NCBI RefSeq assembly: GCF_045037415.1
Contig: NZ_CP173438.1
Length of the DNA: 64,000 nucleotides
Strand: one strand, 5' to 3'
From: Escherichia coli
GTDB taxonomy: Bacteria; Pseudomonadota; Gammaproteobacteria; Enterobacterales; Enterobacteriaceae
Positions 8,257 to 61,325 of the stretch are shown here, in pieces. Every line of letters starts with the position of its first letter. Position 1 is the stretch's first letter. The position numbers were made by a program, and so were the translations under genes. The notes below the pieces were generated by a model, which worked only from the letters and a program-made list of their open reading frames with translations, searched no databases and was not told the origin of the DNA.

Positions 8257-9717
<1,461 letters not shown>

Positions 9718-9767
9718 TAATTTCAGTATTTTCAGAAGGATAATTAATCCTTCTCCGTGCACGAACG

Positions 9768-9799
9768 GTCCCCTCGCCCCTCTGGGGTTAGGGGAACCC
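9768..9799. repeat. GC-rich imperfect palindrome (TCCCCTCGCCCCT...GGGG..AGGGGAA), copy 1
   Basis: ggtcccctcgcccctctggggttaggggaacc in the tldD-aaeR convergent spacer; related copy at 25927..25961. Confidence 0.4.
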
Positions 9800-9838
9800 G
9801 TCGGCACAGGTTTGTACAACGTAACAGTACAATATTAA

Positions 9839-10768
9839 TTACTTCTCTTTCCCGCGCCCGTGCATCTCCTGAAACAATTTACCGACCTCAACAAAATAAT
9901 CCGTCAGCGAGTTGATCACGACCTGTACCTTCAGCGGCAGCTTATCTTTTTCGGTATATAACGCATAAACCGGGCGTGGATCTGACTGGTAACGTGGCAG
10001 CAGGATCTCCAGCTCCCCACGATTGATCTCGTTGATCACCCACATCAGCGGCACGTAGGCGATCCCGGCACCCGCCGTCAGCCAGCGCACCAGCGTCATC
10101 GGATCATTAGTCACAAATCTTCCTTGTGGGATCAGGCGAGTCGAGATCCCTTCCGGTGCGATCAGTTCAAATTCATTGTCGGGCCGCACGCTGTATTCAA
10201 GCCATGAGTGACTACTTAAATCGGCGGGTTTTTCCGGTATGCCGTATTGTGTGAGATAGCTTTTTGCGGCGCACACCACCATTGGCATCGCGCCCAGACG
10301 GCGGGAAAACAGGCTGGAATCTTGCAACGCGCCGACGCGGATCACCACATCCAGACCGTCGGCAATCAGGTCGGGGGCAGGAATTCCGGTAACCAGATTG
10401 ACGCTCAAACCTGGGTATTCTTTCAGCATTTTTGCTGTCAGCCCGGCGAGAACATTTTGTGCCATAGTTGAAGAACAGCCAATGCGCAGCGTCCCGATGG
10501 GGGTGTTATTGAAGGCATACAGTTGCTCATGAACATCCTGCACTTCATGGAGCATCCGACGGCAGCCCTGGTAGTAAATTCTACCGGCTTCGGTCAGGCC
10601 AATGCTGCGTGTGCTACGGTTTAACAGCTTTACCTGCAACTCATCTTCCAGTTTTGACACCGTCTGACTGATGGACGAAACGCTCATCTGTAGCTGTCTG
10701 GCGGCGGCGGTAAAAGAGCCAAATTCAACTACTTTGGCAAACACCGACATGCGTTTTAGTCGTTCCAT
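9839..10768 (-). CDS. aaeR: LysR-type transcriptional activator AaeR
   Basis: 309-aa ORF with N-terminal LysR HTH (FTAAARQLQMSVSSISQTVSKLE); divergent from aaeXAB. Confidence 0.9.
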   Translation of the reverse strand: MERLKRMSVFAKVVEFGSFTAAARQLQMSVSSISQTVSKLEDELQVKLLNRSTRSIGLTEAGRIYYQGCRRMLHEVQDVHEQLYAFNNTPIGTLRIGCSSTMAQNVLAGLTAKMLKEYPGLSVNLVTGIPAPDLIADGLDVVIRVGALQDSSLFSRRLGAMPMVVCAAKSYLTQYGIPEKPADLSSHSWLEYSVRPDNEFELIAPEGISTRLIPQGRFVTNDPMTLVRWLTAGAGIAYVPLMWVINEINRGELEILLPRYQSDPRPVYALYTEKDKLPLKVQVVINSLTDYFVEVGKLFQEMHGRGKEK

Positions 10769-25028: not shown

Positions 25029-25922
25029 ATGGCAACGAATTTACGTGGCGTAATGGCTGCACTCCTGACTCCTTTTGACCAACAACAAGCACTGGATAAA
25101 GCGAGTCTGCGCCGCCTGGTTCAGTTCAATATTCAGCAGGGCATCGACGGTTTGTACGTGGGTGGTTCGACCGGCGAAGCCTTTGTACAAAGCCTTTCCG
25201 AGCGCGAACAGGTACTGGAAATCGTCGCTGAAGAGGCGAAAGGTAAGATTAAACTCATCGCCCATGTCGGTTGCGTCAGCACCGCCGAAAGCCAACAACT
25301 TGCGGCATCGGCTAAACGTTATGGCTTCGATGCCGTCTCCGCCGTCACGCCGTTCTACTATCCTTTCAGCTTTGAAGAACACTGCGATCACTATCGGGCA
25401 ATTATTGATTCAGCGGATGGGTTGCCGATGGTGGTGTACAACATTCCAGCCCTGAGCGGGGTAAAACTGACCCTGGATCAGATCAACACCTTGGTTACGC
25501 TGCCTGGCGTAGGTGCGCTGAAACAGACCTCTGGCGATCTCTATCAGATGGAGCAGATCCGTCGTGAACATCCTGATCTGGTGCTCTATAACGGTTACGA
25601 CGAAATCTTCGCCTCTGGTCTTCTGGCGGGCGCAGACGGCGGTATCGGCAGCACTTACAACATCATGGGCTGGCGTTATCAGGGGATCGTGAAGGCGCTG
25701 AAAGAAGGCGATATCCAGACCGCGCAGAAACTGCAAACTGAGTGCAACAAAGTCATTGATTTACTGATCAAAACTGGCGTATTCCGTGGGCTGAAAACTG
25801 TCCTGCATTATATGGATGTCGTTTCTGTGCCGCTGTGCCGCAAACCGTTTGGTCCGGTAGATGAAAAATATCTGCCAGAACTGAAGGCGCTGGCTCAGCA
25901 GTTGATGCAAGAGCGCGGGTGA
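25029..25922 (+). CDS. nanA: N-acetylneuraminate lyase
   Basis: 297-aa [20 protein letters not shown]... (DHDPS-like family). Confidence 0.95.
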
Positions 25923-25926
25923 GTTG

Positions 25927-25961
25927 TTTCCCCTCGCTCGCCCCTACCGGGTGAGGGGAAA
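25927..25961. repeat. GC-rich palindrome (TTTCCCCTC-N17-GAGGGGAAA), copy 2
   Basis: Perfect 9-bp arms; 5' half (tcccctcgctcgcccct) closely resembles the copy at 9768..9799; 5 bp after the nanA stop. Confidence 0.4.
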
Positions 25962-26030
25962 TAAACGCATCTGTACCCTACAATTTTCATACCAAAGCGT
26001 GTGGGCATCGCCCACCGCGGGAGACTCACA

Positions 26031-27521
26031 ATGAGTACTACAACCCAGAATATCCCGTGGTATCGCCATCTTAACCGCGCACAATGGCGGGCATTTTCCG
26101 CTGCCTGGTTGGGATATCTGCTTGACGGTTTTGATTTCGTTTTAATCGCCCTGGTACTCACCGAAGTACAGGGTGAATTCGGGCTGACGACGGTGCAGGC
26201 GGCAAGTCTGATCTCCGCAGCCTTTATCTCTCGCTGGTTCGGCGGCCTGATGCTCGGCGCTATGGGTGACCGCTACGGGCGTCGTCTGGCAATGGTCACC
26301 AGCATCGTTCTCTTCTCGGCCGGGACGCTGGCCTGCGGCTTTGCGCCAGGCTACATCACCATGTTTATCGCTCGTCTGGTCATCGGCATGGGGATGGCGG
26401 GTGAATACGGTTCCAGCGCCACCTATGTCATTGAAAGCTGGCCAAAGCATCTGCGTAACAAAGCCAGTGGTTTTCTGATTTCAGGCTTCTCAGTGGGGGC
26501 CGTCGTTGCCGCTCAGGTCTATAGTCTGGTGGTTCCGGTCTGGGGCTGGCGTGCGCTGTTCTTTATCGGCATTTTGCCAATCATCTTTGCTCTCTGGCTG
26601 CGTAAAAACATCCCGGAAGCGGAAGACTGGAAAGAGAAACACGGGGGTAAAGCACCAGTACGCACGATGGTAGACATTCTTTACCGTGGTGAACATCGCA
26701 TTGCCAATATCGTAATGACGCTGGCGGCGGCTACTGCGCTGTGGTTCTGCTTCGCCGGTAACCTGCAAAATGCCGCAATCGTCGCTGTACTCGGGCTGTT
26801 ATGCGCCGCAATCTTTATCAGCTTTATGGTGCAGAGTACGGGCAAACGCTGGCCAACGGGCGTAATGCTGATGGTGGTCGTGTTGTTCGCTTTCCTCTAC
26901 TCATGGCCGATTCAGGCGCTGCTGCCAACGTATCTGAAAACCGATCTGGCTTATGACCCGCATACTGTCGCCAATGTGCTGTTCTTTAGTGGCTTTGGCG
27001 CGGCGGTGGGGTGCTGCGTCGGTGGCTTCCTCGGTGACTGGCTGGGAACCCGCAAAGCGTACGTTTGTAGTCTGCTGGCCTCGCAGCTGCTGATTATTCC
27101 GGTATTTGCGATTGGCGGCGCAAACGTCTGGGTGCTCGGTTTGTTACTGTTCTTCCAGCAAATGCTTGGTCAGGGCATCTCAGGGATTTTACCGAAACTG
27201 ATCGGCGGTTATTTCGATACCGACCAGCGTGCGGCGGGGCTGGGCTTTACCTACAACGTTGGCGCACTGGGCGGTGCACTAGCTCCAATCCTCGGCGCGT
27301 TGATCGCTCAACGTCTGGATCTGGGAACGGCACTTGGCTCGCTCTCGTTTAGTTTAACGTTTGTGGTGATCCTGCTGATTGGTCTGGATATGCCTTCTCG
27401 TGTTCAGCGTTGGTTGCGCCCGGAAGCATTGCGTACTCATGACGCTATCGACGGCAAACCATTTAGCGGTGCCGTGCCATTTGGCAGCGCCAAAAACGAT
27501 TTAGTCAAAACCAAAAGTTAA
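26031..27521 (+). CDS. nanT: Sialic acid MFS transporter NanT
   Basis: ORF-track frame 26001..27521; start chosen at ATG 26031 ([22 protein letters not shown]), 496 aa, polytopic. Confidence 0.93.
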
Positions 27522-39586: not shown

Positions 39587-39698
39587 CCCCGGCTAGACCG
39601 GGGTGCGCGAATACTGCGCCAACACCAGGGAAATCTTGGCTGCGCCGTAAATTATTATGATGAGTTACAAGGGCACAGCACTGTTTTTCAGGCCGCAC
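39578..39698 (-). ncRNA. arcZ: Hfq-dependent small RNA ArcZ (SraH/RyhA)
   Basis: Minus-strand sequence GUGCGGCCUGAAAAACAGUGCUGUGCCC...CCCUGGUGUUGGCGCAGUAUUCGCGCACCCCGGUCUAGCCGGGGUCAUUUUUU; terminator hairpin ccccggctagaccgggg overlaps the arcB stop codon; convergent with arcB. Confidence 0.75.
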
Positions 39699-61171: not shown

Positions 61172-61236
61172 AATCTCGCGCTAACAACCTGGAATCGAGC
61201 CGTCATACTACGGCGCAACGCCCTATAAAGTAAACG

Positions 61237-61325
61237 ATGACCCTTCGGGAACTCCAGGGTAAAATGACTATCAAAATGTGAATTGTAGCTGACCTGGGAC
61301 TTGTACCCGGGTCGGTATTTTTTTG
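61237..61325 (+). ncRNA. graL: greA P1 promoter plus leader terminator (GraL short leader RNA)
   Basis: -35 ATGACC (61237..61242), 17-bp spacer, -10 TAAAAT (61260..61265); leader hairpin gacctggg..cccgggtc followed by a T7 run (61291..61324), about 95 bp upstream of the greA ATG. Confidence 0.4.

Follow-up and report, generated by a model that had tools for sequence, protein, structure and literature searches.

Two GC-rich hairpins after tldD and nanA in Escherichia coli: probable shortened Box C elements with a possible role in 3'-end protection

Two GC-rich palindromic motifs lie in a 64,000-nt stretch of E. coli DNA (NZ_CP173438.1, assembly GCF_045037415.1; hereafter the window), and they raise the question of which family of intergenic repeats they belong to and whether they do anything for the messages in which they would be transcribed. 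Both motifs are real and sit where the preliminary description had placed them. On the plus strand, copy 1 reads T-CCCCTCGCCCC-TCT-GGGG-TTA-GGGG-AA (9769-9796) and copy 2 reads TTT-CCCCTCGCTCG-CCCCTAC-CGGGTGAGGGG-AAA (25927-25961), and direct reading finds in both the common core TCCCCTCGC...CCCCT...GGG..AGGGGAA that had been proposed. Two further features attributed to the pair hold for copy 2 only. The inverted TTCCCC/GGGGAA ends are absent from copy 1, which starts with GGTCCCC, and the location just downstream of a stop codon applies to copy 2, which begins 4 nt past the nanA stop (25920-25922) within the nan operon and is separated from the nanT ATG at 26032 by 70 nt. Copy 1 is located between the convergent genes tldD (8272-9717, plus strand) and aaeR (9839-10768, minus strand), 52 nt 3' of the tldD stop (9715-9717) and 42 nt from the aaeR stop (9839-9841).

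As RNA of the plus strand, both motifs fold into stable stem-loops. The hairpin core of copy 1 (9769-9795) is a stem between the C-block CCCCTCGCCCC (9770-9780) and GGGGTTAGGGG (9784-9794), with TCT as triloop, at -34.8 kcal/mol and with a z score of -4.1. Copy 2 forms a 14-bp stem (25927-25940 with 25948-25961), including two G-U pairs, around the loop CCCCTAC, at -31.9 kcal/mol and with a z score of -5.3. For neither copy was any of 200 shuffled sequences as stable. The antisense RNA of copy 2 folds poorly (-19.1 kcal/mol, z -0.9). With intrinsic terminators the motifs share a GC-rich hairpin after a stop codon, but both lack a T-tract on either strand and, since copy 2 lies inside an operon, expression of nanT, nanE and nanK requires transcription to pass through it. 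A terminator scan of both strands found no terminator-like site at either motif, in agreement with the earlier view that these are not canonical intrinsic terminators. A promoter scan was negative at both sites, and an Rfam scan of the whole window at gathering thresholds assigned no family to either motif; the Rfam matches obtained, ArcZ sRNA at 39591-39698 (minus strand) and the greA leader at 61202-61323 (plus strand), are ordinary for the region. Simple motif counts say little about a family. The pattern CCCCT-N12-30-AGGGG occurs twice against 0.48 occurrences expected, and 8 of 100 shuffled sequences also reach two, while TCCCCTCGC with at most one mismatch is not enriched; such counts are weak evidence and insignificant when taken alone.

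The family to which the motifs point is Box C, described in the 1990s by Bachellier and Hofnung, with 32 copies of 56 bp in Bachellier's first list, and again, as PIT elements, by Hoyne and Maher in 2000. The same element, earlier named BoxC and PIT, was later called TMECO and given the pattern CCCTCNCCC-N3-6-GGGNGAGGG-N3-GGGNGAGGG (Holder et al. 2015, PMC4666352). All 23 K-12 elements were recovered with their flanks, and the TMECO regular expression matches 23 of 23. An intact element comprises about 36 nt plus conserved flanks, and its G-rich half consists of consecutive, nearly identical GGGNGA/GGGTTA units. The K-12 copies fall into type A, with TTA as the second loop, a 5' flank GCAC-N5-6-GGTC and a 3' flank GAAC...GCAC, and type B, with a CCG loop, a T-rich 5' flank (TTTTCY) and a 3' flank [G/T]AAAT...CGC. 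The window copies have in common with the family the C-block CCCTCGCCCC, the G-blocks GGGTGAGGGG or GGGTTA, the type-specific flanks and an intergenic location, often between convergent genes or within operons. Unlike intact elements, each lacks one of the two G-blocks and so fails the published pattern and is unable to form the triplex to which the family owes its modern name, and the C-block of copy 2 carries an insertion of 3-4 nt. Consequently, the three-block regular expression has no match within the window, where each copy consists of the C-block and a single G-block. Both copies are shortened derivatives of a three-block element, a point absent from the preliminary description.

Since a profile of the TMECO core gave E-values of only 0.13 and 4.5 at the two sites, too weak to decide membership, flanks were added, and nhmmer profiles were built from the K-12 copies with 18 nt on each side, the orthologue being excluded (the type A profile was made from 14 other copies). 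Over 128 kb, the type A profile matched copy 1 at 9757-9793 with E=1.5e-7, and the type B profile matched copy 2 at 25928-25972 with E=2.3e-3 and a 12-nt deletion at the place of the middle G-block; no other site in the window was significant with either flanked profile. From the profile match and the K-12 alignment, copy 1 is delimited as a truncated type A allele at 9757-9810 (plus strand), with the conserved flanks GTGCACGAACGGTC on the 5' side and GAACCCGTCGGCAC on the 3' side, both of type A. Copy 2 (25927-25961, plus strand) appears, from profile match, fold and synteny with related genera, to be derived from type B: it retains the T-rich 5' flank with GTTGTTTCC 5' of the C-block, the C-block itself, CCG 5' of the last G-block GGGTGAGGGG and, after it, GAAATAAACGCATC and the 3' flank AAATAAACGCATC, the middle G-block being the part that is missing. 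The minus strand of copy 2 also scores (E=0.012), so that its orientation is ambiguous.

For copy 1, the assignment can be followed at the orthologous locus. Over its full length, the window spacer can be aligned with its K-12 counterpart between tldD and aaeR except for a 12-nt gap that corresponds to two GGGTKA hexamers. The K-12 orthologue, CCCTCGCCCCTTTGGGGTGAGGGTTAGGGTGAGGGG, satisfies the three-block pattern and is the exact sequence of TMECO #14, listed at 3,390,494-3,390,529 (PMC4666352, Table 1) and placed between aaeR and tldD (Table S2), with which the K-12 annotation agrees. Copy 1 contains one GGGTKA hexamer where K-12 contains three, and the third (Hoogsteen) block is absent from the window, so that copy 1 is left as a simple hairpin. 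On this alignment it is virtually certain that copy 1 is Box C, as the one-hexamer allele of TMECO #14. The spacer is length-polymorphic in E. coli, with G-halves G(GGGTGA)(GGGTTA)(GGGTGA)GGGG in K-12, G(GGGTTA)(GGGTGA)GGGG in a second allele and G(GGGTTA)GGGG in the window. Among 5,425 E. coli genomes, alleles with one, two and three hexamers account for ~10%, ~49% and ~40%, respectively; a search with the K-12 allele, divided into identity bands, returned 59-nt matches in ~553 genomes, 65-nt matches in ~2,674 and 71-nt matches in ~2,040-2,220, and an evenly spaced sample of a 651-nt search fell into these three length classes as well. Over those 651 nt, every one of the 554 window-type genomes matches the window at 99% identity or more. 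There is, in addition, a fourth variant that has a 1-nt deletion. We conclude that the window allele is probably a derived, twice-shortened form of an inserted three-block element, a polarity read from the family consensus and from the restriction of the allele to a closely related set of genomes rather than from a rooted tree. Two distant enterobacterial tldD-aaeR spacers lack any Box C. TldD is too conserved to help in sorting nearer relatives, clusters at 90% failing to separate E. albertii or E. fergusonii.

Some further observations concern this spacer. Between the tldD stop and copy 1 there is a perfect AT-rich palindrome, AGAAGGAT-AATTA-ATCCTTCT (9734-9754), which other tldD-aaeR alleles keep with one or two changes. 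An insertion in the G arm of hairpin 1, annotated as ISEc13 in NZ_LT903847.1, was considered as a natural event and rejected as a laboratory construct of Tn5 type; a transposon end of that type, CTGTCTCTTGATCAGATCT, is found at the equivalent of window position 9789, and the record comes from EPEC E2348/69.

The dispersed nature of the family agrees with the earlier proposal of an intergenic repeat family other than REP. When the full K-12 allele of copy 1 was used as a query, a median of 17 places per genome was found across the 5,425 E. coli genomes (range 1-32). Genomes with the window allele (e.g. NZ_CP019000.1 and NZ_CP124324.1) have just 2-3 places detectable by BLAST, and this low number against the median of 17 marks the lineage of the window as poor in Box C, consistent with the published variation of TMECO counts between strains from 29 to 1 (PMC4666352). 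The absence of further copies and of conservation in orthologous spacers had been named as grounds for giving up a family; the genomes contain many further copies, and both motifs recur in orthologous spacers. Box C was also among the published repeat families that the preliminary description had listed for comparison, and it is the one that fits. Elsewhere in E. coli, a Box C in the pstA-pstB spacer (K-12 3,908,340-3,908,680) belongs to a 92-nt segment that is present in 2,099 of 5,425 genomes and missing from the others. An 8-nt direct repeat, AACCGTGT, stands at both ends of this extra segment, with a third repeat copy just past the G-block; the arrangement looks like a target-site duplication or a deletion at microhomology and is relevant to the spread or loss of Box C.

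The nanA-nanT spacer was retrieved from 80 species. All Escherichia species have a short hairpin there. Pseudocitrobacter faecalis and Enterobacter sp. kpr-6 carry two full inverted Box C elements at this place, P. vendiensis carries five within a spacer of 403 nt, and Kluyvera has a partly truncated one, CCTCTCCC-TGAA-GGGGAGAGGG-TAA-GGGG. In these relatives the elements are oriented like copy 2 and are found after the nanA stop, ahead of the flank TTCATACCAAAGCG; the downstream flank TTCATACCAAAGCG...GGGAGACTCAC is common to them and to E. coli, and in every case the last G-block is 14-28 nt upstream of this shared anchor. REP elements take their place in Citrobacter, Salmonella, Enterobacter and Lelliottia, and other GC-rich palindromes are seen in the spacers of Raoultella, Atlantibacter and Leclercia. 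To judge from these sequences, the first 30-400 nt after the nanA stop are a hot spot for intergenic repeats, and since relatives have Box C at the same position, copy 2 would be a Box C relic in a spacer that hosts repeats. We regard its identity as Box C as very probable; this membership, resting on an E-value of ~0.002 together with synteny for a motif that fails the pattern match, is well supported, as is the view of copy 2 as the older relic, fixed in the genus Escherichia. It may have arisen from a single type B element by loss of the middle block or from a collapsed inverted pair. The MAFFT alignment favours a single type B element with an internal deletion, and the CCCTCAC arm in E. 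albertii and in E. coli strain E69 fits a collapsed pair, the process that Holder et al. called the 'palindrome effect'. That study describes 'TMECO mutated' and 'palindrome effect' derivatives in general terms, and the nanA-nanT site is absent from its list (PMC4666352).

Within E. coli, the nanA-nanT spacer is more conserved than the adjoining coding DNA. A 136-nt segment across it has 99% identity or more in 5,393 of 5,408 genomes. That level is reached by the last 300 nt of nanA in 741 of 5,409 genomes (3,522 being 90-95% identical) and by the first 300 nt of nanT in 2,645 of 5,409. Compared with K-12, the window has no difference in the spacer, while 118 nt of nanA show 3 and 175 nt of nanT show 4. 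The extreme conservation could partly reflect a recombination mosaic; the contrast in identity between 25620-25919 and 25900-26035 suggests a mosaic or recombination boundary at the nanA end. From one Escherichia species to another, spacer and coding DNA diverge to about the same extent. Among representatives of seven Escherichia species, 4 of the 14 stem pairs of copy 2 vary, in the 5' arm only, with an invariant 3' arm; the varying pairs stay C-G/U-G or A-U/G-U, so that every pair is kept. Double compensatory changes were not found in this stem among the seven, and one-sided wobble changes could also reflect a C-to-T bias on the non-template strand. Structure after nanA is frequent across genera and shows no preference for the sense strand (44 of 81 species), and this lack of strand asymmetry over 81 species leaves an RNA-level role beyond Escherichia unsupported.

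Farther along the same spacer there is a second, smaller hairpin, GCG-T-GTGGGC-ATC-GCCCAC-CGC (25997-26018), which abuts the Shine-Dalgarno sequence of nanT (GGGAGA, 26019-26024) on the 5' side. At least 10 genera conserve this hairpin, and at two pairs of the 6-bp inner stem both partners have changed in a compensatory manner (G-C to A-U in 4 sequences, C-G to U-A or G-C in 3). Of all its cells, 85.5% are paired, compared with 37-50% when the partner is slid. This hairpin may control translation or processing of nanT.

What the transcribed motifs might do, for which the preliminary description had proposed stabilisation of mRNA or binding of protein, is suggested by the sequence that follows them. 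The 35 nt behind hairpin 2 (25962-25996, plus strand) are rich in C and poor in G and make a candidate Rho loading region; over 25962-26031 as a whole there are 22 C versus 14 G, most of the G residues being in the later small hairpin and the Shine-Dalgarno sequence. Behind hairpin 1, the first 100 nt contain 28 C versus 14 G, and a region at 9800-10140 on the strand of the tldD transcript, antisense to aaeR, was delimited from composition and from K-12 Rho mapping. In K-12, DirectRNA-seq with and without bicyclomycin placed a Rho termination region at 3,390,148(-), with a score of 5.99 and p=5.5e-18, and another at 3,372,577(-), with a score of 2.10 and p=6e-5 (PMC7815308, supplementary file 2). 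The former is antisense to aaeR, ~350 nt past the tldD Box C, and corresponds to about window position 10140; the latter corresponds to window position 26029, which is 3 nt short of the nanT ATG and ~65 nt beyond hairpin 2, these positions being coarse as the scores use 800-nt windows. At 3,372,577(-), coverage upstream and downstream was 164/58 without bicyclomycin and 205/152 with it (PMC7815308). Rho-terminated E. coli transcripts have been shown to carry, at steady state, 3' ends just past stable stem-loops that lack a U-tract and that shield the RNA from PNPase and RNase II (Dar and Sorek 2018, PMC6061677). The window hairpins resemble these in being GC-rich and U-tract-less and in having more C than G downstream and a K-12 Rho region beyond, a likeness in anatomy and context, since the protective stem-loops form a functional class and not a sequence family. 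The curated Term-seq 3' ends in PMC7815308 include none at either hairpin, the nan operon being barely expressed in the media used.

By analogy with that class, we infer that the C-rich stretches and the K-12 Rho regions are tied to the hairpins upstream of them, and that the transcribed hairpins would guard 3' ends after Rho termination. A slipped-strand deletion in the hexamer run would remove one G-block, and the surviving G-block, still able to pair with the C-block, would leave a simple hairpin. Both elements would act only when transcribed, each as a stable U-tract-less stem-loop, one in the 3' UTR of tldD (and of aaeR), the other in the RNA between nanA and nanT. Transcription would pass the hairpin until Rho stopped it in the C-rich sequence that follows, 3'-to-5' exonucleases would trim the transcript back to the hairpin, and the hairpin would shield the message upstream. 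In this way, the tldD message and a nanA-only message would be stabilised, and nanA message would exceed nanT message. Decayed Box C hairpins combined with 3'-end protection after Rho termination are, on balance, the likely explanation overall. Taken by itself, an RNA-level role has about an even chance for copy 2, and for copy 1 it is doubtful; the three common alleles at the latter locus argue against strong constraint on its exact form.

The identity of the motifs can be weighed against accidental likeness. That they are unrelated GC-rich hairpins that look alike by chance, or REP/BIME elements, or weak intrinsic terminators, would agree with the insignificant motif counts and with the poor E-values of the core-only profile, and yet it is scarcely credible: for copy 1 it is refuted by an orthologue that is a catalogued TMECO, the flanked profiles give significant matches at both sites, full Box C elements stand at the position of copy 2 in other genera, and neither a T-tract nor any Rfam family is present at either site. 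REP/BIME (PU) elements are, like these motifs, short, GC-rich, palindromic, dispersed and transcribed intergenic repeats, they are known to stabilise upstream mRNA, and the nanA-nanT spacers of Citrobacter, Salmonella and Enterobacter contain them. Their sequence, however, is unrelated: direct reading found no REP consensus core (GCCGGATG...CCGGC palindrome) at either motif, and the true REP of the Citrobacter and Salmonella spacers (GCCGGATAAGGCG...) looks quite different from copy 2. REP also has a dedicated transposase-like partner, RAYT, while we know of no RAYT-like partner for Box C. As to the remaining repeats, the ERIC/IRU and RSA consensus sequences measure 127 bp or 152 bp, and the motifs, at 27-35 nt, are already accounted for by Box C.

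If the motifs are Box C, they may still be idle. It is quite possible, though less probable than the protective role after Rho termination, that both are neutral relics without present function and that the hairpins are merely what deletion left, persisting because elements without remaining direct repeats are no longer unstable. The three common length alleles of copy 1, the small number of Box C places in window-allele genomes, which makes the family look dispensable, and the clean presence/absence polymorphism of the pstA-pstB element are what neutrality would predict, as are the earlier tests of PIT elements, which detected neither promoter nor terminator activity and saw no phenotype in vivo (as reviewed in PMC4666352), and the lack of a mapped 3' end at either hairpin (PMC7815308). 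Neutrality sits poorly with copy 2, where the motif and its spacer vary much less within E. coli than the coding sequence on either side does, every Escherichia substitution in the stem keeps RNA pairing, and coverage drops in a Rho-dependent manner at the nanA-nanT junction. The short distance between the nanA stop and the stem also allows for an effect on translation. Because the stem starts 4-7 nt past the stop, a terminating ribosome must melt it, and copy 2 might act as a translation-coupled brake that stalls termination and lowers NanA output; Liang, Rudd and Deutscher reportedly described in 2015 REP elements within ~15 nt of a stop codon, which would serve as the analogy. The distance is read straight from the sequence and the position is conserved in all Escherichia species, but such a brake is inapplicable to copy 1, which is 52 nt away from the end of tldD, the spacing between stop and element varies among related genera, and we consider it improbable. 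A role in DNA is less probable still: non-B structures (triplex or quadruplex) that stall replication and promote local rearrangement, an idea put forward for intact TMECO elements, would fit the length polymorphism at tldD-aaeR, and intact TMECO oligonucleotides do form stable triplexes in vitro, TMECO loci being more variable between strains (PMC4666352). Each window copy, however, has a single C-block and two G-tracts, and the absence of the three-block pattern makes neither an intrastrand triplex nor a four-tract G-quadruplex possible in the window alleles; besides, in vivo footprinting gave no support for triplex even in intact elements (PMC4666352), and copy 2 is exceptionally stable across 5,408 genomes. 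The protective role after Rho termination is the reading that we prefer. Its strongest form, in which the nanA-nanT hairpin is a Box C relic domesticated in the nan mRNA as a Rho-linked attenuator and a 3'-end protector that sets the NanA:NanT ratio, with selection on its RNA fold leaving it almost unchanged across E. coli, remains a tentative and rather unlikely one.

Box C has been known since the 1990s and was described on three occasions, under the names Box C, PIT and TMECO, and the published K-12 list includes the tldD-aaeR locus; as the family is already known, the finding is an ordinary one of low novelty. Its modest interest lies in what became of the elements. Catalogues based on patterns miss hairpin-only derivatives such as copy 2, and the size and history of the family are underestimated as a result. 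Stepwise loss of hexamers, from three to two and then to one, by which the triplex motif is disarmed, is clearly exemplified at tldD-aaeR. At nanA-nanT, a relic with unusual conservation and an adjacent Rho-dependent drop offers a cheap and testable candidate function for a family that has none. If this function were true, the collapse of Box C by slippage of a hexamer or a 12-mer would be a route from an unstable selfish repeat to a stable regulatory stem-loop.
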